DNA of 64,000 nucleotides from an uncultured Bacteroidia bacterium (GTDB lineage Bacteria; Bacteroidota; Bacteroidia; Bacteroidales; F082): NCBI GenBank assembly GCA_902799345.1, contig CADBZW010000020.1, forward strand, positions 50,603-114,602, in the 5' to 3' direction. The position numbers and the translations under genes are program-made. The notes beneath the pieces are model-generated. The model had not been told where the DNA came from. It was given only the letters and a program-made list of their open reading frames with translations, and ran no database searches. Below are positions 309-9,422 of the stretch, piece after piece. Within the stretch, counting starts at the first letter, position 1. Every line of letters starts with the position of its first letter.

Positions 309-328
309 TCGTTGTGATTCCGACCAAC

Positions 329-366
329 AAAAATGCGGAGCGGCATCGTGTCGTTCCGCATTTTTA
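329..366. terminator. Bidirectional rho-independent terminator hairpin
   Basis: AAAAATGCGGA (329-339) pairs with TCCGCATTTTT (355-365). The A-run and T-run flank the stem, between convergent sppA and the minus-strand operon. Confidence 0.6.
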
Positions 367-383
367 TTGGTATTTTCGCGGTT

Positions 384-428
384 CACAAGTTTGTGGACCA
401 CAAGATTGTGGACCACAACTTTGTGAAC
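384..428. repeat. Three tandem 15-bp units, each with an internal palindrome CACAA-N2-TTGTG
   Basis: The units are CACAAGTTTGTGGAC / CACAAGATTGTGGAC / CACAACTTTGTGAAC. The whole 381-430 stretch (GGTT...AACC) is also a near-palindrome. Confidence 0.9.
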
Positions 429-438
429 CGATTTTTGG

Positions 439-627
439 CTATTTCACCACCTGCTTCCACCCCACCCAAAAGACGACCCTTTTGCCGCAGCAGGGGCAAC
501 GTTTTACGACAAATAGCCGCGTTTTGGCTGGCGCGGGATCTGTCATCGTGCCCTCTGGCAGGGTGAATAGCTTGATTTCGGTTTGGCAGCGGGGGCAGGT
601 GCGAATAAGTATCGAATTATCATTCAT
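439..627 (-). CDS. Small zinc-ribbon protein (62 aa), possible immunity or partner protein of the upstream nuclease
   Basis: Two Cys knuckles are present (CPRC ... CPCC). Its ATG overlaps the TGA of the LHH nuclease gene (ATGA), indicating translational coupling. Confidence 0.55.
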   Translation of the reverse strand: MNDNSILIRTCPRCQTEIKLFTLPEGTMTDPAPAKTRLFVVKRCPCCGKRVVFWVGWKQVVK

Positions 628-1136
628 TTACCATAGATTTTTCTCAGTTCTGTTGGCGTAAAAGCCTTGAAACGAGCCTTCCAATAGTCTGATTTCTCAC
701 GGTCGAACATTTGACGGTCGATTTCCGACTCTTTTCCGGCCTGATGCAGAATGGTGTTATTGCCGTCACCCATGTGCTCGGCCCAAGTAAGTTCGGCGAA
801 AGGCGAATCTTGATGTTGACCGATATGATGTAGTTCGTATGGATCGCCATTCATATCGCGGGGCGGAAAGCCTTCGCCTATCAAGTCGGCGTTGTTATAG
901 TCCACCCACTTGCTGTAATCGGCCAATTTGTTTTTCAGCCAAGTGTTACGTCGCACGCTGTAATCACTCCAATTAATGTCGGAGCGGATTAACGCCCAAC
1001 GATTGCCGATACGAGCGGCTTTCAGTCCAGCCTTCATGTAAATCTCAGCCTCCTCCATTGATGCGATGGCGTTGATGATTTCGTCGGGCCAGTGGGTAAG
1101 ACGATTGAGTTGTTGTTTTTCTAAGGCGTTCATCAT
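624..1136 (-). CDS. HNH/EndoVII-fold nuclease toxin domain protein, LHH-type (170 aa, stand-alone)
   Basis: The motif ...DMNGDPYELHHIGQHQDSPFAELTWAEHMGDGNNTILHQ... fits the LHH family of polymorphic-toxin nucleases (LHH, acidic residue, downstream His). No N-terminal trafficking domain is present. Confidence 0.7.
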   Translation of the reverse strand: MMNALEKQQLNRLTHWPDEIINAIASMEEAEIYMKAGLKAARIGNRWALIRSDINWSDYSVRRNTWLKNKLADYSKWVDYNNADLIGEGFPPRDMNGDPYELHHIGQHQDSPFAELTWAEHMGDGNNTILHQAGKESEIDRQMFDREKSDYWKARFKAFTPTELRKIYGK

Positions 1137-1331
1137 TGGTTATATACAACTTGCTTGAAGCCCGTCCAAAAGACGACCCTCAATTCGGGCAACGGACAAT
1201 GGCAAACGGCAGTATCTGCGGAAGCGGACATGGGTCGGTGACTTTGTGGTTACAGTGACCACCATTTCTAGCGACAAAGCTAGGCCGTTGATGCGCATCA
1301 GGCGCTTTGGGGTGATACGCAATACTTGCAT
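1133..1331 (-). pseudogene. Decayed, frame-split paralogue of the 439-627 zinc-ribbon gene
   Basis: The 63-aa frame (1140-1331) weakly parallels the N-terminal half of the Zn-ribbon protein but has lost its cysteines. A 32-aa frame (1133-1231) ends CHCPLPELRVVFWTGFKQVVYNQ, compared with CPCCGKRVVFWVGWKQVVK in the intact copy. A 15-nt exact DNA match links 1166-1180 and 466-480. The 32-aa frame stop overlaps the LHH ATG (ATGA). Confidence 0.45.
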
Positions 1332-1333
1332 GA

Positions 1334-2620
1334 TTACTGTTTATTTTCTTCATTTAAACTATTTTCGGATCCCGTACCATTTAACTCATTTTCCACTCTA
1401 GCCTCTTCATTCTTTTCGTGTAACTTTTTTAGAATTTTATCCTTCAAAATCTTCTCTTCTTGTTCTTTTAACCGTTTCATCTCCTCTTTCTTCTTTTCAA
1501 ACGCATCAAACAAATCTTGTGCCTCAAAATAAATAGAATCAGAGGCCAACGAAGCTTTTGACAACAGCATATCCAAAATAGCATTTTTAATTTCTCTTCC
1601 CGAAAAACCTTCAATCATGGCACTTGCATAATCAACGTCTTCGTCTGTAATTTCTTTAGATAAAGGTAATCTTGCAGGAAGCATTTTTCTGATTATTGCA
1701 GCCCGTGCTTCTTTATTTGGTAGTTCAAATCGAATATGTTTCAAAATTCGCGATTCAAAAGCTCTATCGAAATTTGTAACCAAATTAGTAGCAAACAAAA
1801 CCACGCCTGAGTATTGTTCAAGTTGAATAAGCATTTGGCTCCTGAGGGAATTTAATGCCTGCTCGGATCCTTGAGTTACGTTTTGGATACGTTTTCCAAG
1901 AAAAGAATCTGCTTCATCAAAAAACAATACTGAATCTGTTTTCTCTCCAATTTCAAATGCCTTTTGTAAATTTTTCGGGGCTTCACCAACATATTTGGAT
2001 TCTATCTCAGAATAGTTTAACAGCAGTATTTTCTTACCTAAATAATTAGCAACAGCATGTGCACACATCGTTTTTCCTGTTCCTGGCTCTCCATAGAAAT
2101 TCAATATGCTTCTTGGTATTGGGTCTATTTCCCCAAAGCCCCATTTGTTATATACCAGTTCCTTACATTGAATGACTTTCAACGCATTCATCAACTCCTC
2201 CCTTACTAAGTCGGGCAAAATAATCTGATTAAAATTGTACCTTGGATTTATTGGAATGAGATCCAGTACATCTTCTTTCTTTTTCGTTTCCACAACTTCT
2301 TTCTGTTTAAAGTTTAATTTGATAATCAAAGTGTGCTTCTTCAAGCAGAATTCCAATTCTTCTTTTCGTTTCTTAAGATAATCCTGGAATAATGACACAA
2401 AAGGGAAGCTTCCCTCCAAAGAGAAGGAAGCATTGTGTTCCAGTAGAAAACTGTCCTTGTTTTTCTGATGCAATTCAAAAGCACAAGCGACCTTGATAGG
2501 CCATTCTTTTTTTCTTCTCAATGTGTCTGTTACAAAACAGTTTACATCAGTTTCCAATTGATTTACATAGACAATCTCTGTTGGTTCAACAGATGAAGGA
2601 AAGGCAACAATATTAACCAT
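1334..2620 (-). CDS. Classical-clade AAA+ ATPase (428 aa) with a unique N-terminal domain and a K/E-rich coiled C-terminal tail
   Basis: Walker A is GEPGTGKT and Walker B is VLFFDEAD. The SRH-like segment is ATNLVTNFDRAFESRI, followed by the lid region GFSGREIKN. The gene is very AT-rich. Confidence 0.9.
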   Translation of the reverse strand: MVNIVAFPSSVEPTEIVYVNQLETDVNCFVTDTLRRKKEWPIKVACAFELHQKNKDSFLLEHNASFSLEGSFPFVSLFQDYLKKRKEELEFCLKKHTLIIKLNFKQKEVVETKKKEDVLDLIPINPRYNFNQIILPDLVREELMNALKVIQCKELVYNKWGFGEIDPIPRSILNFYGEPGTGKTMCAHAVANYLGKKILLLNYSEIESKYVGEAPKNLQKAFEIGEKTDSVLFFDEADSFLGKRIQNVTQGSEQALNSLRSQMLIQLEQYSGVVLFATNLVTNFDRAFESRILKHIRFELPNKEARAAIIRKMLPARLPLSKEITDEDVDYASAMIEGFSGREIKNAILDMLLSKASLASDSIYFEAQDLFDAFEKKKEEMKRLKEQEEKILKDKILKKLHEKNEEARVENELNGTGSENSLNEENKQ

Positions 2621-2907
2621 TATAAATAAATTACTTGTCCAACATATAGTTCATCTGACACGCCATCGTCTGAAGTTACTTCGAGATCTTTAATTTTATC
2701 ATTCTCTTCGTCAAAAATCCCGACATTCACTTTCTTGGTACTTTTATCGTTAATTATCATTTTAATCGCATTAGCGAACTCTTTCTTTATGGCTTCTTTT
2801 AATCTTCTTTCATTGATTTTCCTATGAATAACCATACCTCCAGCAACAGAAGCTGTTATGACTGCAGCTCCTCCAAAAATGCATAGAATTATTTTCAACC
2901 AATCCAT
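2620..2907 (-). CDS. Small membrane-anchored protein, paralogue 4 of the tandem family
   Basis: The ATG at 2907 gives MDWLKIILCIFGGAAVITASVAGGMVI (TM helix). The tracked ORF extends to a TTG at 2964. The C-terminal NVGIFDEENDK...DELYVGQVIYL resembles the shared module of the three upstream genes. The stop overlaps the AAA+ start (TAATG). Confidence 0.6.
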   Translation of the reverse strand: MDWLKIILCIFGGAAVITASVAGGMVIHRKINERRLKEAIKKEFANAIKMIINDKSTKKVNVGIFDEENDKIKDLEVTSDDGVSDELYVGQVIYL

Positions 2908-2960
2908 AATATAAGCAATAAAAGCAGGGGATACTTCATTGATGCATCCCCTGCCAATTC

Positions 2961-3332
2961 TCAACTTAGAACAACAAGCGTCTCATTCCCAAGCACTTCG
3001 GTGAGTTCTTCATCAAAGCCATCAGCATATACAATCTTCATAGGATTAAGTGAATCTTTATCATTATTGTATACACCAAGAATTAGAACCTTTGACTTGT
3101 TTGATTTAATATTCATAACTTTTAGTTTCTCTTCTCCTGGTAAAGCCAAGAAAGGAATTTGTTTACCTTTAACCATAGAAAGTGTTTTGAAATAGGCAAC
3201 CACGTCTTCTAATTTCAAATCACCTTCAACAGTTTCTTCAAGAAGAGGTTCTTTTCTTTTGCACACTGCGTATACAAAAGCTCCAACTGCAATAATGCCT
3301 AAACCTATTGCGACACCAACTATTGTTTTCAT
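2961..3332 (-). CDS. Small membrane-anchored protein, paralogue 3 (123 aa)
   Basis: The N-terminal TM helix is MKTIVGVAIGLGIIAVGAFVYAV. The segment VVAYFKTLSMVKGKQIPFLA and the C-terminal EELTEVLGNETLVVLS nearly match the 3339-3686 product. Confidence 0.7.
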   Translation of the reverse strand: MKTIVGVAIGLGIIAVGAFVYAVCKRKEPLLEETVEGDLKLEDVVAYFKTLSMVKGKQIPFLALPGEEKLKVMNIKSNKSKVLILGVYNNDKDSLNPMKIVYADGFDEELTEVLGNETLVVLS

Positions 3333-3338
3333 TATTTC

Positions 3339-3686
3339 TTAACTTAAAACCACTAGTTTTTCATTGCCCAAAACCTCTTGGGTCTCTTCATCAATTTCAT
3401 CGGCAGCCAAATAACGTGCATTCTCAATCTCATCGGTTTGCTGATTATAGGTGGCTTCAAAAATACCCACATTTTTCACGGGAGCATTTTTAATCAAATC
3501 CTTCAACTGTTCCGTATTGGCAATAAACGGAATGTCTCGATTACGAACCAGGCTTAGGGTCTTGAAATAATTAACTATTTCCTGAACAAAGCTTATAATT
3601 CCTTGAATTATCTTTTGAACAAATTCTTTTAATGCGATGAAGAAATTCCTCAAAGCATCCATTATGACATTAACAAACTTTCCCAT
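3339..3686 (-). CDS. Small protein with amphipathic or hydrophobic N-terminal helix, paralogue 2 (115 aa)
   Basis: Contains IVNYFKTLSLVRNRDIPFIA and the C-terminal EETQEVLGNEKLVVLS. There is a 7-nt gap to the next gene. Confidence 0.7.
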   Translation of the reverse strand: MGKFVNVIMDALRNFFIALKEFVQKIIQGIISFVQEIVNYFKTLSLVRNRDIPFIANTEQLKDLIKNAPVKNVGIFEATYNQQTDEIENARYLAADEIDEETQEVLGNEKLVVLS

Positions 3687-3693
3687 GTCTTTC

Positions 3694-4125
3694 TCAATTT
3701 AAAATTACTAAATCCAGATCACCAAACAATTCTTTGGTATCATCAGCCAAACTTTTAGCCTCTACAACTACGTAATGATTTGTTTCTTCGGGTAACAAAT
3801 CGCGATCCTTTACATAAGCCAAAAAGACAAATACCGATTCATCTTTGGGTTTTCTTATGGCAACAACACCATCACTACCTGCAACCATATGATTCTTAGA
3901 AAATTCGACAAGGTTACTTACCGATAGAACATCAACCTTTTCAAAAGACACATCCAATCTAGCAACATCGATAAAATCTTGCGCATTATCTTTAATCTGG
4001 CTAATTATGCCCCCATCGTCAAACAGTTTTGTTCTTGCTCTTTCCCATATTTGACGAATTACGGGAAGAGCTTTTTCAACGAACCATTTTTTTAGCTCGT
4101 TCAAATTCAAATCCATCGTGTTCAT
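3694..4125 (-). CDS. Small soluble protein, divergent paralogue 1 (143 aa)
   Basis: The C-terminal ...VFVFLAYVKDRD...HYVVVEAKSLADDTKELFGDLDLVILN follows the same strand-turn-strand-acidic-LG-LV(V/I)L(S/N) pattern as the three downstream genes. Confidence 0.65.
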   Translation of the reverse strand: MNTMDLNLNELKKWFVEKALPVIRQIWERARTKLFDDGGIISQIKDNAQDFIDVARLDVSFEKVDVLSVSNLVEFSKNHMVAGSDGVVAIRKPKDESVFVFLAYVKDRDLLPEETNHYVVVEAKSLADDTKELFGDLDLVILN

Positions 4126-4151
4126 TTTCGATTTTTGAATTAATTAACAGC

Positions 4152-4439
4152 CTACTCTCCAAGTTTTTCGGCATCCCCTATCACTTTTGCAAGCACACAA
4201 AAAGAGCGTAGCCCGACTTTTATATTCCGAAAGAAAGGCTCTGGTAAACCGTATAGAAGAATCATAAAAGCAGTCCACGCCCATATAGGGCGGAACGCCA
4301 GAACGATTGCTCCTCTATTGTTGAAATTTACCAGATTTCTTCTTTTCAGAGCAAAACGTCTTTCAACGTTCTCAATGTCTGTCGCCGTAGCAACGCTGCA
4401 AATATACAATTTTTTCATATACTCGCACAACTCAGACAT
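4152..4439 (-). CDS. Small membrane protein (95 aa)
   Basis: ATG start. The central hydrophobic stretch is GAIVLAFRPIWAWTAFMILLYGL. The gene sits in the operon with gaps of 26-37 nt. Confidence 0.5.
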   Translation of the reverse strand: MSELCEYMKKLYICSVATATDIENVERRFALKRRNLVNFNNRGAIVLAFRPIWAWTAFMILLYGLPEPFFRNIKVGLRSFCVLAKVIGDAEKLGE

Positions 4440-4476
4440 TTTTTCTGCGGACTGCTTTCTCTCGCTTCGTTTTGGC

Positions 4477-4737
4477 TTAGGAGCCTTTCAAGTTCTTGGC
4501 ATAATAATGCTTGAATATCGGCTTGCAAATCTTTTTGTGAACAATCACATAAAGGATTACGCCGACAACGGTGCCGATGATTTTTATGATGATAACGTTA
4601 TCAAAGAATATGAATAAGGGCACCAACACAACCAATGCAGGCAATGCCGCCAAAACCATTGCCACCTTGTCGGCAGAACCTGCCTTGGTCCTCAGGTAAG
4701 CCTTGCGCCGTTGCGCAATTGTATATGCGTTCCCCAT
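4477..4737 (-). CDS. Small two-TM membrane protein (~86 aa)
   Basis: The hydrophobic stretches are VAMVLAALPALVVLVPLFIFF and IIGTVVGVILYVIV. The ATG at 4737 overlaps the TGA of the upstream gene (TGATG). Confidence 0.55.
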   Translation of the reverse strand: MGNAYTIAQRRKAYLRTKAGSADKVAMVLAALPALVVLVPLFIFFDNVIIIKIIGTVVGVILYVIVHKKICKPIFKHYYAKNLKGS

Positions 4738-5270
4738 CACACCATGGCTTTAAACAACGTCTCTAGATTCTCCACCAACTTGTCGTCGAAAGTGATTCCC
4801 CTGCCCAAGACCAACGACCCAACCACATTGCCGTTGAGAGACAAACGATGTCCCAAATAGGTGGTCCCTTCAAATACGATATCGCCTAAGCTGATTTCGT
4901 TGAGGTCGCTCAAAGCCACCTTGCCTCTTTTTTTGCCGGAAGCCAACATGGTGATTCCCCGAAAAAGGAAAGTGATTTTCATGCATTGGTAATACACGTT
5001 GCGGTCGGTCACCAACAAGCCCGTCAGCCTTCCCCATATCGCCACTTTCACGTCTACCATGAACAGGGGCTTCTCGCCGGGTTCTAGGCTCACATACTTC
5101 GCGTGCTGCTGAAGTTTCTCGTTAGTGATTTGGTCAGCCTCCAACAAAAGCGGGCTGATGACCTGGTTGCGACTCATTTTTTCAAATGTCGCTTTGATAA
5201 TTTCCGAATAGTCTTTCATTGTGATATGTTTCTGGTTATCTGATAGTTTTCCTTTTTTCACCAATCCCAC
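4737..5270 (-). CDS. Hypothetical protein with bacterial PH/GRAM-like features (177 aa from GTG 5270; 160 aa from ATG 5219)
   Basis: The pattern ...GLLVTDRNVYYQ...KVALSDLNEISLGD...LSLNGNVVGSL... resembles bacterial PH-like domains. The assignment is by eye only. Confidence 0.5.
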   Translation of the reverse strand: MGLVKKGKLSDNQKHITMKDYSEIIKATFEKMSRNQVISPLLLEADQITNEKLQQHAKYVSLEPGEKPLFMVDVKVAIWGRLTGLLVTDRNVYYQCMKITFLFRGITMLASGKKRGKVALSDLNEISLGDIVFEGTTYLGHRLSLNGNVVGSLVLGRGITFDDKLVENLETLFKAMV

Positions 5271-5671
5271 GAATCAATTTCCTGGCCTATTTCCACCATT
5301 TCCTTTGCCATCGACAGTATGTCGTACTCATCCTCGCCGTAAGCACTCTTGTAGTACTTACGTGCCGCTTGTGGATTTTTCATGGTTTCGTCAAATACCG
5401 CCACGAACTTGTAGCCGATTTCATCATCACCCAACTCGCTATAAACAGCATAATACAACACTGCGAGGTCGCATTTTTGCTCCAAACTCATCTGAGAGAA
5501 ACTGTTGCTCAGCAAATTGTCGCTAATTTTCAATGCCCTTTCATGATTATCATCATAAATACATTCGGCAGCCTCGTGGATTTTCTTGTCGATCGGGTCA
5601 ACTTCGCAGGCACACACGCTGAATAAAAGCGCCATCGCCATCAGGAATTTTGTCAGTTTTTTCATCGTCAT
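5258..5671 (-). CDS. Lipoprotein (start refined to MTMKKLTKFLMAMALLFSVCAC)
   Basis: A signal peptide is followed by a lipobox Cys. It is the first gene after a CAAAagTA (-7 box, minus orientation) at 5697-5704. Confidence 0.65.
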   Translation of the reverse strand: MTMKKLTKFLMAMALLFSVCACEVDPIDKKIHEAAECIYDDNHERALKISDNLLSNSFSQMSLEQKCDLAVLYYAVYSELGDDEIGYKFVAVFDETMKNPQAARKYYKSAYGEDEYDILSMAKEMVEIGQEIDSWDW

Positions 5672-5696
5672 GGATTTTAATTGTGTTTTGTATGCA

Positions 5697-5704
5697 CAAA
5701 AGTA
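5697..5704 (-). promoter_or_regulatory. Bacteroidota -7 promoter box (TAnnTTTG on the minus strand) for the lipoprotein to AAA+ operon
   Basis: The plus strand reads CAAAAGTA, 26 nt upstream of the ATG at 5671. Confidence 0.4.
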
Positions 5705-5799
5705 CGCAAGTTTCAATCCCGACTTTTTTCGGAAGAGAAAAGCCAATTAAAACCTTTGAAAAACAACGTTTTATAATCGTAAGAAATCGTAAAGTGGGC

Positions 5800-7467
5800 T
5801 TACAAGCCAAACAAATCCTTGTAATACCTGACCGCCGCCGAATCGTTTTCGAGGACTTTGGCTATTTTATCCGCATTGGCGTTTTTAGCCATGTTGTCGT
5901 CGGCAAAAAGTCGCTCCAAATCGTTCCAAGAAAGCCCCGAACGATGCAAGCCATAGAAAAGCAACTGGCCGGCCTTGCCCTTGACAGCCTTCAAACGCTT
6001 ACCTTGCCTACAGACAAAATTCCTCGACAACAATCCCTCCAGCAACTGCACCAAATCACGATCACCTTTGGCAGTGGCAATCACACAAGTTGAATCTTTG
6101 AAAACGCTGTAAACCAAGTTATTCAGTTCGGTTTTCGACATCTTTGCCGACAAATAATCAGATGGACGCAGCGACTGCCCTTTCGCGAGATTCTTGTGGC
6201 GTAGATAGGTCTTTTCTTTCCCGTGTTCAAGACTAACCTTTTCGTGGACCACACCATCGAACTGGAGCAACAAAGCCTGCCCTTTTTCCACAATGGAACT
6301 TAAATTCGGGCAGATGATCACTTCCAAAAACATCTTATCGCTGTCTTTCACATCCAGCAACAGCAAAATGCGACATAGTTTATTGTCAGCCAATGCTTTA
6401 AGACACGATTTCAAAGTATCATTGGCATCAGTAAGATAAAGAATGACTACATCCGTGTCCTCAAGAGAACCAACTTTGCCCAAATCGAACCACAACAATT
6501 CAGATAGTTCACCACCCACATCAATGGCTTTTGTATCAGCAATTTCCAGAGGGAACGAAGATGCGCAACGGAAGTCTTTGGTCAGTTCTTTTAGATGGGG
6601 TTCAAAAGCACCTACCAACTTGTCCAATTCATGTTTTGCGGACAGTTTTCCGATAAGGTATGACATTAATTCGTTATCCCAGATGTTGGGTTGGGCAACT
6701 TCCACCATTTCGGATGTCAGTTTCAAGTCTTCGGGCGGAACAAACTGGCGAAATCGCGCCTTCTGCAAGGCATTGAGCATGAGTCGGGCGGCAGTGGCCT
6801 CATCATCAAGGCAAAAAGCCAATTGGAAGTCGGCAAACAATTCCTTCGGTGATTTCTTTGGTTGCACCTTATATAAATAGCGGTTGATGGTCAGTGTTTC
6901 GGAACGGAAATCATCGAAATGGGTCAAACCCATGATTTCGTCCCTGGCAATTTTCTTGTCCAACAACGTTTTCAAGGCTGCGTTCCAAACCAACAGCACT
7001 TCGGGTTGCACGGTTTCCAATAATTCCTGGAAAGCATCCCAATCCTCGTAGCGATAGGCCAATCCTTTCTCCTCGTATTCAGGTACTTGTGGCGACGGAC
7101 AGAAATACTGCAAATAATTGGCGAAAGCCACCTGTTCCCAAAACTCCGTTTTTTTGGCTTCGGTGCAGTCGTCGGTCTTGCCTAACATCAGTTTCGTGAA
7201 ATAGGAATAAGTCGGATAGCGGTCGTATTCCTCCAAAAAAGCGTCGATTTCAATTTGGTTGCTTAGCGAAAGGCACAAGTCGTGGCGGTCGCCGTAGGCA
7301 GGGCAGTTAGCATCATAACTTGCACAATTCCTTTGCATTACACAATCCTCATAAAACGGGCACTGCTTCAGTACGCAATGATGCTTCACGCCCAAGACAA
7401 GGGTTCGGTAGCCCTTGAAGCCCTCTTGATAATGCTGCCCTATGCGCGGTTGGAAGAACATCGGCAC
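5800..7467 (-). CDS. Large hypothetical protein (555 aa) with a Cys-rich N-terminal region
   Basis: Long ORF with normal composition. Six Cys occur within residues 31-65 (HHC..QC..DC..NC..NC..LC). The GTG at 7467 touches, and the ATG at 7461 closely follows, the ABC-F stop codon. Confidence 0.7.
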   Translation of the reverse strand: MPMFFQPRIGQHYQEGFKGYRTLVLGVKHHCVLKQCPFYEDCVMQRNCASYDANCPAYGDRHDLCLSLSNQIEIDAFLEEYDRYPTYSYFTKLMLGKTDDCTEAKKTEFWEQVAFANYLQYFCPSPQVPEYEEKGLAYRYEDWDAFQELLETVQPEVLLVWNAALKTLLDKKIARDEIMGLTHFDDFRSETLTINRYLYKVQPKKSPKELFADFQLAFCLDDEATAARLMLNALQKARFRQFVPPEDLKLTSEMVEVAQPNIWDNELMSYLIGKLSAKHELDKLVGAFEPHLKELTKDFRCASSFPLEIADTKAIDVGGELSELLWFDLGKVGSLEDTDVVILYLTDANDTLKSCLKALADNKLCRILLLLDVKDSDKMFLEVIICPNLSSIVEKGQALLLQFDGVVHEKVSLEHGKEKTYLRHKNLAKGQSLRPSDYLSAKMSKTELNNLVYSVFKDSTCVIATAKGDRDLVQLLEGLLSRNFVCRQGKRLKAVKGKAGQLLFYGLHRSGLSWNDLERLFADDNMAKNANADKIAKVLENDSAAVRYYKDLFGL

Positions 7468-9422
7468 TATTTTTCATACTCCGCCATCACCTCGTCATGT
7501 TCCATCTGCCTCTCTCCCCAGTCATCCATGAGGTGTTGGAGTTGCTCTTTCTTTTGGCCGTAAGCCCAATACCAGTCGTTGTCAATCTTGATGTCGGGAT
7601 GCTCGTCGGGATGGGCCATGATGGCATCTTGCTCGGCTAGTTCGGCTTCCAATTTGCCGATGGCTTCTTCGAGGCGTTGGATTTCCTTGTCGACCTTGCG
7701 GAGCTTGGCGTCAATCTGCTTCTTGCGCTCGTAGTTGATTTTGTTCTGCGAGACAGGTTCAGCGGCGACTTTCTGAGGCTGTTGCTTGGCGGCTATCTCC
7801 AACTCCTTCAAGTGAGTGAGGTTCTTTTGTTCCAAAAAGTCATAAATGTCGCCAACGTACTCCTTGATGTTAGGCTTGCGGAATTCGTAGACTTTGTTGG
7901 TCAGACCTTGCAGGAAGTCGCGGTCGTGGGAGACGATGATTAAGGTGCCGTCATATTGGATTAAGGCGTTTTTCAGGATGTCCTTGGAGAGCATGTCCAA
8001 GTGGTTCGTCGGCTCGTCGAGGACCAACATATTGGTTGGGAAAAGCAGCATCTTGGCCAAGGAAAGACGGGCCTTCTCGCCTCCCGAGAGCACCTTCACC
8101 TTCTTGTCGATGTCGTCGCCACGGAAGAGGAAGGAGCCGAGCAAAGCCTTCACCTTAAGACGCATGTCGCCCACAGCCACATCGTCCAAGGTCTCAAAGA
8201 CGGTCTTGTTCATGTCGAGCATATCCTGCTGGTTCTGGGCGTAATATCCAATTTTAACCTCATGACCCAGCTTTACCTCACCTTCATGGTCGAGCACGCC
8301 GCAAATAATTTTAGACAGCGTGGATTTGCCCTCGCCATTGCGTCCCACAAAGGCAATCTTCTCCCCTCTCGGAATCAACAGGTTGACGTCTTTGAGGATG
8401 ACCTGGTCGCCGTAGGACTTGCTCACATGGTTCAGCTCCAGCGTCACCTTGCCAGAATGAGGCGCAGGCGGAAACTTGAAATGGATGGCTGTGCTGTCGA
8501 TGTCGTCAATGACGATTTCATCCATCTTTTCGAGCAGCTTCACGCGGCTCTGCACCTGTTTGGCTTTGGTCGCCTTGTAGCGGAACCGCTCGATGAACGC
8601 CTCTATATTCTTGATTTCGCGCTGCTGGTTCTCGTAGGCCGAGCGTTGCATGTCGACGCGCTCCTCACGGAGACCGACATACTCGGAATACGGCACCTTG
8701 TAGTCATAGATTTTGCCATTCGAGATTTCCACCGTGCGGATGGTGATGTTGTCGAGGAAAGCGCGGTCGTGGGAGACCATCAGGATGGCACCGTAATAGG
8801 CCTTCAGGAAGCCTTCGAGCCATTGGATGGACTCGATGTCGAGGTGGTTGGTGGGCTCGTCGAGGAGGAGCAGGTTGGGCTTTTTCAACAAGATTTTCGC
8901 CAATTCCACGCGCATTTGCCAGCCGTTGCTGAACTCGCGCATGGGGCGCAGCATGTCCTCATGGCCGAAACCCAATCCGACCAAAATCCGCTCCGCTTCA
9001 CCTTCGATGCTATTGCCACCGAGCAAGGCCAAGCGGTCGTTCAAGTTGTTCAACTTAACTATCAGCTTCTCGTATTGCGGGCTTTCATAGTCTGTGCGCT
9101 CAGCCAATTCCTGTTGCAGACGCTCCGAATCACGTTCCAGTTGATGGTATTCGTCGAAGGCAGAAAGGGCCTCATCCAAAACCGTTTTCGTGCTGTTGAC
9201 GTTCTTCTCCTGAGGCAAATAACCTATGGTAACGCCCTGAGGAATAATCACATCGCCTTTTGAAGGCTGTTCCAACCCACAAATGAGCTTCAGCAACGTA
9301 GTCTTGCCCGCACCATTCTTTCCCACGAGGCCGATACGGTCTTTCTCGCGGATCAAAAAGGAGATGTCGGTGAAGAGGTCTTCACCGGTGAAGTGCATGC
9401 TGAGGTTTTGGATTGAAATCAT
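7467..9422 (-). CDS. ABC-F family ATPase (translation factor or ribosome-associated type, 651 aa)
   Basis: Two nucleotide-binding domains are present (GKNGAGKTT and GRNGEGKST; LSGG signatures). There is an inter-domain linker, no TM segments, and a charged coiled C-terminal extension. Confidence 0.95.
   Translation of the reverse strand: MISIQNLSMHFTGEDLFTDISFLIREKDRIGLVGKNGAGKTTLLKLICGLEQPSKGDVIIPQGVTIGYLPQEKNVNSTKTVLDEALSAFDEYHQLERDSERLQQELAERTDYESPQYEKLIVKLNNLNDRLALLGGNSIEGEAERILVGLGFGHEDMLRPMREFSNGWQMRVELAKILLKKPNLLLLDEPTNHLDIESIQWLEGFLKAYYGAILMVSHDRAFLDNITIRTVEISNGKIYDYKVPYSEYVGLREERVDMQRSAYENQQREIKNIEAFIERFRYKATKAKQVQSRVKLLEKMDEIVIDDIDSTAIHFKFPPAPHSGKVTLELNHVSKSYGDQVILKDVNLLIPRGEKIAFVGRNGEGKSTLSKIICGVLDHEGEVKLGHEVKIGYYAQNQQDMLDMNKTVFETLDDVAVGDMRLKVKALLGSFLFRGDDIDKKVKVLSGGEKARLSLAKMLLFPTNMLVLDEPTNHLDMLSKDILKNALIQYDGTLIIVSHDRDFLQGLTNKVYEFRKPNIKEYVGDIYDFLEQKNLTHLKELEIAAKQQPQKVAAEPVSQNKINYERKKQIDAKLRKVDKEIQRLEEAIGKLEAELAEQDAIMAHPDEHPDIKIDNDWYWAYGQKKEQLQHLMDDWGERQMEHDEVMAEYEK

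Follow-up and report, generated by a model that had tools for sequence, protein, structure and literature searches.

The MIT domain of Vps4 binds the MIM motifs of ESCRT-III proteins, and IetAS, an anti-plasmid and anti-phage system, consists of the AAA+ ATPase IetA (also IteA) and the protease IetS. Here we describe a locus that shares features with both, located in a 64,000-nt stretch (the window) of contig CADBZW010000020.1 (assembly GCA_902799345.1, positions 50,603 to 114,602, forward strand) of an uncultured Bacteroidia bacterium of the Bacteroidales. Its unit is a self-contained, horizontally mobile module of five minus-strand genes, A-B-C-D-AAA (1334-4125), which encode four small proteins and an AAA+ ATPase. 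A sequence-only reading of the window had joined these genes to others in one operon of ten minus-strand open reading frames (ORFs). All ten ORFs are present where they had been placed, and their AAA+ motifs and low guanine-plus-cytosine (GC) content stood, but the single ten-gene unit did not: it is a composite, of which the real unit is the five genes. Library searches and full-text literature searches, the latter with partial coverage and including partners of phage shock protein (PSP) and ESCRT systems and nucleoside triphosphate-dependent conflict systems, returned no description of the module. We tentatively read it as conflict-related.

A five-gene module in three phyla

The module and its functional elements are as follows.

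1334..4125, minus strand: module A-B-C-D-AAA
3694..4125, minus strand: gene A, 143 aa, soluble; helical N-terminal half followed by the shared domain
3697-3726: last 10 codons of gene A, C-terminus FGDLDLVILN
3339..3686, minus strand: gene B, 115 aa; shared domain behind a long N-terminal helix
3342-3371: C-terminus of gene B, LGNEKLVVLS
2961..3332, minus strand: gene C, 123 aa; shared domain behind an N-terminal transmembrane helix
2964-2993: C-terminus of gene C, LGNETLVVLS
2620..2907, minus strand: gene D, 95 aa; shorter form of the domain behind an N-terminal transmembrane helix, C-terminus VGQVIYL
1334..2620, minus strand: AAA+ ATPase, 428 aa (PF00004, E 1e-26, 94 bits against a 21-bit cutoff)
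2297-2620: ATPase N-domain, residues 1 to ~108
2069-2092: Walker A GEPGTGKT, residues 177-184
1982-1996: pore loop 1 KYVGE, residues 209-213
1907-1924: Walker B FFDEAD, residues 233-238
1745-1771: second region of homology with Arg fingers, FDRAFESRI, residues 284-292
~1337-1507: K/E-rich helical tail of the ATPase

When 185,579 species were scanned with one genome each, 355 matching stretches were found; they span Bacteroidota, Spirochaetota, and Cyanobacteriota, and 80 loci were fetched. Using a profile for each protein, we found the order A-B-C-D-AAA in 38 of the 39 Bacteroidales-type loci with enough upstream DNA. Orthologues of A are the first module gene in 38/39 Bacteroidales loci, those of D directly precede the AAA gene in nearly all loci, and the median intergenic gaps of the module are 8-13 nt. 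Each small protein has its own orthologue series; three unrelated contigs with wholly different flanks encode one-to-one orthologues of A-D in the same order, following a 72-aa DUF6140 protein. Bacteroidales carriers include Prevotella, Muribaculaceae, Paludibacteraceae, and Onthomorpha, and the flanking genes differ from locus to locus in unrelated chromosomal contexts. The sequence-only reading had named beforehand, as the test that could refute it, the co-occurrence of the small paralogues and the ATPase outside this genome, and this co-occurrence proved strong. Its close spacing was likewise recovered, with an overlap of the D and AAA genes at 2620 and short gaps at 3332/3339 and 3686/3694 that measure 6-7 nt.

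Rearranged versions (D-AAA-A-B-C or A-x-B-AAA) are found in Treponema, Brachyspira, Tenacibaculum, Capnocytophaga, Trichormus, and Snowella. Plasmid p1 of Planktothrix agardhii NIVA-CYA126/8 (locus L097, positions 88464-99186 of the record) carries a version with the order Hsp70-TPR protein, five small transmembrane proteins with the domain, AAA+ ATPase, and HerA-like DUF87 ATPase. A zinc-metallopeptidase-like protein is encoded near this plasmid module, whose host is a cultured cyanobacterium. AAA+ matches on Synechococcus, Moraxella, and Lactobacillus plasmids were set aside as more distant ATPases in other contexts that do not represent the module. A single close relative was found among 2.9 million viral contigs (IMG/VR), and PHROGs gave no meaningful match for the module proteins; a phage origin was rejected on the basis of this single IMG/VR match.

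The AAA+ ATPase

The ATPase contains one AAA domain only in its 428 aa and no transmembrane segment, and it has the features of the classical AAA+ clade: Walker A and B, pore loop 1, the sensor-1 Asn, and the Arg fingers of the second region of homology. The motifs GEPGTGKT, FFDEAD, and FDRAFESRI and the K/E-rich tail, all recognised earlier from the letters, were confirmed, and in 24 homologues the motifs and the positions G177-T184, K209-E213, D235/E236, N279, and R291 vary little or not at all. Among solved proteins, the nearest to the ATPase are VAT, p97-D2, Cdc48, and Afg2 (E 1e-41 to 1e-38), followed by CdvC/Vps4 (PDB 4lcb). Model matches to IetA/IteA, CdvC, PAN, and TRIP13 cover the ATPase region only and lie far under the curated cutoffs. 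PADLOC returned IetA models (E 6e-30) and TRIP13 models (E 1e-13), and the NCBIfam matches were IteA NF042959 (E 6e-26, 91.4 bits against a 510-bit cutoff) and CdvC (E 1e-22, 80 bits against a 650-bit cutoff); TIGR01243 scored 77 bits against a cutoff of 803 bits.

The N-domain was modelled by AlphaFold2 (AF2) with a predicted local distance difference test score (pLDDT) of 85 and a predicted template modelling score (pTM) of 0.74, has the element order alpha-beta-beta-alpha-alpha-beta, and includes a conserved HNASFS motif. The model matched no fold in PDB or BFVD (best E 0.45). A likeness to alpha/beta domains of the RNase-PH/Lon/BrxL-C type was not significant (TM ~0.33), and homology between the N-domain and the domain of the small proteins, as the logic of effector-associated domains would have it, was rejected (hhalign probability 0.3%). 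Relatives of the ATPase number in the thousands; the best 120 are 52-100% identical, most of them 52-68% and aligned across the N-domain; among these 120, all that carry names are Bacteroidales assemblies. The protein is thus shown, as far as conserved residues predict activity, to be a catalytically competent single-domain classical AAA+ ATPase with a private N-domain.

Small proteins A-D and their shared C-terminal domain

B and C are clearly paralogous (E 9e-18). Pairwise matches of A and D to their paralogues are weak (E 0.02-0.03), and their membership in the family follows from family profiles and conserved synteny, which confirm the earlier claim of four paralogous proteins. The same claim had called the family expanded, which did not hold, since A-D are four fixed orthologous lineages in constant order and are not diversifying. 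These comparisons show A-D to be, at the level of predicted proteins, four anciently diverged paralogues with a previously unrecognised C-terminal domain in common. The domain comprises ~80 aa, is found in no library, and its profile retrieved only 389 clusters among 1.84 billion representative proteins. In the 150 best-scoring clusters listed, proteins are 52-254 aa long and the domain is placed at the extreme C-terminus.

In almost every case the protein ends one residue past a V-L pair. Bacteroidales A proteins end in F-x-E-S-D/E-L-I/V-I-L-K/N, Bacteroidales B and C proteins in L-G-N-E-x-L-V-V-L-S/N/T, and the spirochaete, flavobacterial, and cyanobacterial proteins in F-G-D/N-K-D-M-I/L-V/I-L-K/T/Q. 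The terminal strand (LVVLS / DMIVLK) is near-invariant. The D-type ending is distinct (V-G-Q/E-x-I-Y-x). The idea that the IYL terminus of D is an HbYX motif was dropped because many orthologues have extra residues past it.

Two of the four proteins, C and D, are membrane-anchored, as had been predicted. A transmembrane helix, detected as a hydrophobic 19-mer, is present in 91% of C and 96% of D orthologues. K/R residues are enriched after the helix in both (in C orthologues, a count of 4.2 after it versus 0.7 before), which indicates that the shared domain faces the cytoplasm. No transmembrane or hydrophobic segment was found in A. The AF2 model of B (pLDDT 69 overall) comprises a helix of the amphipathic type (residues 2-43) followed by a small alpha/beta domain. 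With B included, three of the four proteins are thus predicted to be tethered to the membrane or to bind it. B has 56 word-indexed homologues, all hypothetical, and matched nothing in PDB, either by profile against PDB sequences or by Foldseek with its AF2 model. A is without a match in Pfam, NCBIfam, PADLOC, and PHROGs, and A-D do not match Snf7, PspA, or Vipp1 by Pfam, NCBIfam, or PDB sequence. The D ORF reaches back to a TTG at 2964; the 95-aa call on identical contigs starts with the ATG at 2907, which is the most likely start, and the D stop codon and the AAA start codon have 1 nt in common.

The shared domain also occurs in fusions. In Treponema it is fused to an LRAT/NlpC-P60 enzyme (PF04970, E 4e-24; loci L079 and L077), and L079 additionally encodes a D-type domain fused to DUF1232. 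Free LRAT genes adjoin the module in L075 and L022.

Searches of the ten proteins against Pfam, NCBIfam, PADLOC, and PHROGs gave matches for the AAA and LHH domains only, and PADLOC-DB 2.0 gave zero matches for the nine proteins other than the ATPase. The impression that the locus corresponds to no named defence, secretion, or toxin system was therefore upheld, the PADLOC hits being to the generic AAA domain only.

Base composition and upstream boundary of the module

Positions 1334-4125 have a GC content of 0.35 and rank lowest among window stretches of equal length (window mean 0.50, sd 0.04), and a scan of the whole window places the start of the lowest-GC stretch of module length at ~1400. 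GC and GC at third codon positions (GC3) are distributed as follows.

A, B, C, D, and the ATPase: GC 0.33-0.36, GC3 0.23-0.36
87-aa, 177-aa, lipoprotein, and upstream 555-aa genes: GC 0.44-0.47, GC3 0.55-0.63
LHH cassette: GC 0.48-0.53, GC3 0.54-0.65
Rest of the window: GC 0.51

The drop coincides exactly with the five genes, with a sharp discontinuity of GC and GC3 at ~4126-4476. Low GC had been noted from hand counts and is real over 1334-4125, but the break does not span all ten genes, as the four upstream genes listed above lie at 0.44-0.47. Nor is it a simple sign of recent transfer, although horizontal acquisition had been argued from it: the core has ~0.35 GC in most loci whatever the GC of the host, with proteins only 40-55% identical. 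Across loci most cores have ~0.33-0.39 GC beside host flanks of 0.41-0.60, the exceptions being L013, L021, L049, and L051 with cores at 0.51-0.53. Since the low GC persists across hosts despite this protein divergence, the module's AT-richness seems to be maintained rather than to be the trace of a recent transfer.

The only large gap between the ORFs lies upstream of gene A (4126..4476, minus strand, 352 nt, GC 0.41). The ten-gene operon had been thought to start from a single TAnnTTTG promoter box at 5697-5704. Further boxes are present on the minus strand at 4399-4406, 3458-3465, and 1275-1282, and the window contains the motif 29 times, with 30.7 occurrences expected by chance. Because of this chance frequency a TAnnTTTG box carries no weight alone, and the single-promoter argument was dropped. 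The box at 4399-4406, within the gap, is a candidate promoter of the five-gene unit. No terminator-like hairpins were found in the 352-nt gap or between the ten ORFs.

In other loci DUF6140 occupies the position upstream of gene A. Here the gap holds a 95-aa ORF (4152-4439) that had been counted as a membrane protein gene of the operon. It is not called on identical public contigs, and its sole relative elsewhere is weak; it is a doubtful gene that belongs to the island and not to the module. In L095 this relative (39% identity, E 4e-5) is called, with a length of 82 aa.

DUF6140 and other recurrent neighbours

Intact DUF6140 genes flank the module, just upstream or downstream, in ~30 loci (e.g. 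L004 8149-8367, L006 8130-8348, L037 9123-9344). The 72-73-aa protein is far better conserved than A-D, usually ends in [RK]-I-G, and has a host-like GC content of 0.43-0.53 beside the 0.35 core. It matched no PDB sequence; its size and strand/helix pattern suggest a beta-grasp (ubiquitin-like) protein beside a Cdc48-like ATPase. Gene-free stretches of 650-1185 nt lie upstream of DUF6140 (L004 7225-8148, L006 6946-8129, L007 7529-8176). A tblastn search of our window detected no intact DUF6140, only a truncated relative:

1140..1331, minus strand: 63-aa DUF6140-like ORF, starting 3 nt past the AAA stop; GC 0.51, unlike the core

This ORF matches DUF6140-type ORFs of L020/L028 (E 1e-6) and a broadened DUF6140 profile (E 5e-20, alignment over the first ~30 residues only), and has no match to the Pfam DUF6140 model (PF19637, a ~70-aa family). 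With its N-terminal half DUF6140-like and its C-terminal half unrelated, it is probably a degenerate or chimeric remnant.

Other genes recur less often. In ~10 distinct loci each, the ATPase is followed by a 116-135-aa protein or by a ~133-aa protein. Homologues of the Cys-rich N-terminal ~200 aa of w555, a 555-aa island protein described below, are encoded upstream of the module in ~8 distinct loci (L019, L022/23, L029, L033, L036, L053, L060); they are 200-350 aa long, often in two copies, and this N-terminal domain has no match in Pfam or PDB. In L022/23 two copies flank the free LRAT gene. Two or three tandem dynamin-like GTPases (LeoA/LeoBC-like by PADLOC) follow the AAA gene on the same strand in five Bacteroidales loci (L057 1023-4939, L034 7479-13111, L022 10074-16419, L038 12405-15701, L013 8579-9432), in L057 at a distance of 2 nt; neither the window nor most module loci have them. 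The remaining neighbours include integrases, reverse transcriptases, PD-(D/E)XK, Abi_2, HipA, WYL, RhuM, and Schlafen-like proteins, mixed with housekeeping genes. A 421-aa protein encoded ~1.6 kb downstream of the AAA gene in L004 (12957-14222), in this lineage only, starts MTALVGILNKRAAVMAADSAVT; the start is reminiscent of an N-terminal-Thr (proteasome/HslV-like) hydrolase, and the protein has no Pfam match.

The variable island

The module lies within a variable island, whose other features are:

309..7467: variable island, flanked by an sppA-like S49 peptidase gene (3-308 and beyond) and by an ABC-F ATPase gene (7467-9422)
5800-7467: w555, 555 aa, no known domain; island cargo
5258-5665, minus strand: lipoprotein; island cargo
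4737-5270, minus strand: 160/177-aa protein ("PH-like"); island cargo
4477-4740, minus strand: 87-aa transmembrane protein; island cargo
624-1136: LHH nuclease, 170 aa (PF14411, E 3.7e-19, 69 bits against a 23-bit cutoff)
439-627: 62-aa zinc-ribbon protein; island cargo

The flanks recur in L095 (ABC-F ... S49 peptidase, HPPK, dNK), together with a w555 that is 68% identical; this locus lacks the module, and its cargo is entirely different and unannotated. Positions 309-7467 are consequently a variable hotspot of which the module is one cargo item. The S49 peptidase/ABC-F hotspot always opens with a w555-family gene. In L093/L094 a w555 orthologue is followed by the lipoprotein, 177-aa, and 87-aa proteins as a group (58-80% identity), again without the module, and these three proteins are absent from the ~80 other module loci examined. 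L093 also carries radical-SAM/SPASM and Schlafen-like genes. The PH/GRAM-like label once given to the 177-aa protein found no support in Pfam, NCBIfam, or PHROGs and, as no library matches this protein, is putative.

A nuclease gene downstream of the operon, reported before, was identified as LHH (PF14411, E 4e-19). It is not part of the module: it is strain-specific, being found among module loci in this strain's locus only, and has its own flanking direct repeat. The repeat is 35 nt long (446-480 and 1146-1180, 80% identity, 700 nt apart), brackets the LHH and 62-aa genes, and its copies form the 3' ends of the 62-aa gene and of the DUF6140-like ORF. L095 has the 62-aa gene (89% identity) without LHH. 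The LHH cassette looks like an insertion by recombination. Two adjacent hairpins of the perfect type (323-371 and 379-430; 23-25-nt arms, 87-88% complementary) sit between the convergent 62-aa and S49 peptidase genes, with a T-run after the first, and are probably bidirectional terminators. Rfam gave no match and a tRNA search found no tRNA in the whole window.

Possible function and alternative explanations

Our preferred reading, held tentatively and drawn from gene content and predicted proteins, is that of a mobile, probably conflict-related module whose AAA+ ATPase engages a membrane-bound assembly of A-D. A-D would come together as a hetero-oligomer on the cytoplasmic membrane, at its inner face, and this assembly would be the dedicated client of the hexameric ATPase, as the terminal strand, the coupling within the operon, and the common compartment suggest. 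The N-domain or the pore may engage the free C-terminal strand, and ATP-driven unfolding could then assemble, activate, or dismantle the A-D complex. Such client logic agrees with a domain that is always C-terminal, with the retention of pore loop KYVGE and of the Walker and Arg-finger residues, and with the cytoplasmic location of both domain and ATPase. The N-terminal parts would provide a membrane-acting output, to which their helices (transmembrane or amphipathic) point, as do the fusions to LRAT, a lipid-acting enzyme, and to DUF1232, a membrane domain. The likeliest role would be one in biological conflict, as an abortive, membrane-perturbing defence against phages or mobile elements; this is suggested by the hotspot location, the patchy spread over several phyla and a plasmid, the toxin and mobile-element neighbours, and the Hsp70/HerA context in Planktothrix.

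Several observations weigh against this reading. None of the proteins is homologous to any validated defence protein; in a crude count, ~5/144 same-strand neighbours match defence models, and many module flanks are housekeeping genes. The lone viral-contig relative excludes a phage origin and is silent on function. Four fixed, co-ordered paralogues resemble the subunits of a structural machine more than they do diversifying effectors. The AF2 model of the B monomer is weak in the shared domain (pLDDT 52-77), so that the predicted fold of that domain, and any contact with the ATPase, are tentative.

The main rival is a non-homologous analogue of ESCRT-III/Vps4 (or of the archaeal CdvABC), in which A-D would polymerise on the cytoplasmic face of the membrane, remodelling or repairing it, and be recycled by the ATPase through their C-terminal motif, much as ESCRT-III MIM motifs are bound by the MIT domain of Vps4; the module would then serve in stress or in membrane maintenance and not in immunity. 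We consider it a real if rather unlikely alternative. It accounts well for several small paralogues that carry a motif at their extreme C-terminus and accompany one classical AAA+ ATPase with a single AAA domain; for one member with an amphipathic-type helix beside two with transmembrane anchors; for CdvC/Vps4 among the best full-length ATPase matches; for the dynamin-like membrane-remodelling GTPases repeatedly found just downstream; and for the fixed four-paralogue set, which suggests a structural assembly. It accounts less well for small proteins that match none of Snf7, PspA, and Vipp1 and are predicted to be alpha/beta and not helical hairpins, for an N-domain that is not an MIT three-helix bundle, for a rare, patchy, AT-rich, and island-borne distribution that is unusual for a maintenance system, and for LRAT fusions that resemble effectors. 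A broader version, which we would likewise give a minor share of the probability, describes an unrecognised bacterial membrane machine, immune or membrane-repairing: a new-fold hetero-oligomer with a dedicated AAA+ ATPase, as a convergent counterpart of ESCRT-III/Vps4. In such a machine the ATPase would build or dismantle the assembly via the free C-terminal strand; the machine could be armed with LRAT, would sometimes act alongside dynamin-like GTPases, and would have spread on islands and plasmids across Bacteroidota, Spirochaetota, and Cyanobacteriota.

A-D might alternatively be membrane adaptors that tether the AAA+ hexamer while it extracts or unfolds other substrates (membrane proteins that are foreign or misfolded, or proteins of an invader), comparable to Msp1 or to FtsH without the protease. 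Four different tethers exceed what anchoring needs, a strictly terminal, near-invariant strand resembles a recognition or engagement element and not a passive anchor, and the LRAT fusion fits delivery of cargo or effectors better, so that this explanation appears improbable even though the ATPase lacks a transmembrane segment that C and D possess, the stoichiometric gene order is conserved, the threading pore is canonical, and the helical K/E-rich tail could contact partners. Less probable still is a selfish, toxin-antitoxin-like addiction cassette that stabilises an island or plasmid, with toxic small membrane proteins neutralised by the ATPase: mobility, AT-richness, and location on islands and a plasmid agree with it, as do the frequent toxicity of small membrane proteins and the tight D/AAA coupling via a 1-nt overlap, but the five-gene cross-phylum architecture is far more elaborate than known addiction modules and no labile-antitoxin logic is evident. 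That the ten genes from lipoprotein to AAA+ form a single system transcribed from the box at 5697-5704 is very improbable. They share a strand and mostly tight spacing with no terminator-like hairpin between them, and co-transcription by read-through is possible; a ten-gene functional unit is, however, already contradicted by the recurrence of the lipoprotein, PH-like, and 87-aa genes without the module in L093/L094 and their absence from ~80 other module loci, by the GC/GC3 discontinuity at ~4126-4476, and by a second TAnnTTTG box in the gap, the motif being no commoner than chance.

The module would join the few classical AAA+ systems with co-encoded dedicated clients (Vps4/ESCRT-III, ClpV/sheath, TRIP13/HORMA, IetAS). 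The module is found in several phyla and is prevalent in the gut microbiome, and it adds two families that are missing from current libraries, the small C-terminal domain and the ATPase N-domain. Its strictly terminal strand motif provides a directly testable recognition hypothesis, and the associations of the module with LRAT, DUF1232, and dynamin suggest that it acts at the cytoplasmic membrane. The immune repertoire of Bacteroidales is poorly charted; a defensive module would represent a new type of system for this order, and a remodelling machine a case of convergent evolution with ESCRT.

Comparison with known systems

With ESCRT-III/Vps4 and CdvABC the module shares a single-domain classical AAA+ ATPase that has an N-terminal recognition domain and is accompanied by several small membrane-binding paralogues. 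As in ESCRT-III/Vps4, a conserved motif is placed at the extreme C-termini of the small proteins, and CdvC/Vps4 is among the best full-length matches to the ATPase. In contrast to ESCRT-III, A-D are unrelated to Snf7/PspA by Pfam and PDB sequence, and B is predicted to consist of a helix and a small alpha/beta domain; unlike that of Vps4, the N-domain is alpha/beta in the AF2 model and gave no MIT three-helix bundle by Pfam or fold search. The module is, moreover, bacterial, rare, and island-borne. IetA is the best PADLOC/NCBIfam match to the ATPase, and both IetAS and the module are accessory, island-borne, AAA+-centred modules. The score is nevertheless far below the equivalog cutoff and concerns the ATPase region only, and the module genes encode four small proteins instead of an IetS-like subtilase or peptidase; no peptidase recurs among the neighbours either.

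Cdc48/p97/VAT and Afg2 are the closest solved sequences to the ATPase domain and have the pore-loop, Walker, and Arg-finger residues in common with it. The module ATPase differs from Cdc48/p97/VAT in its single AAA domain instead of a D1-D2 tandem, and from Cdc48 in an N-domain that matches neither a double-psi-barrel nor another known fold and in its dedicated operon partners. The TRIP13-HORMA pair of type III CBASS likewise combines an AAA+ remodeller, to which the ATPase has weak TRIP13 matches, with small adaptors whose C-terminal element (that of TRIP13-HORMA) is engaged, but neither the module nor its recurrent neighbours include a HORMA protein, a cyclase/CD-NTase, or a CBASS-type effector. 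The dynamin-like GTPases near the module in five loci resemble Eleos LeoA/LeoBC and DynA and, although they are occasional neighbours and not a module component, suggest that these systems and the module share a membrane theme.

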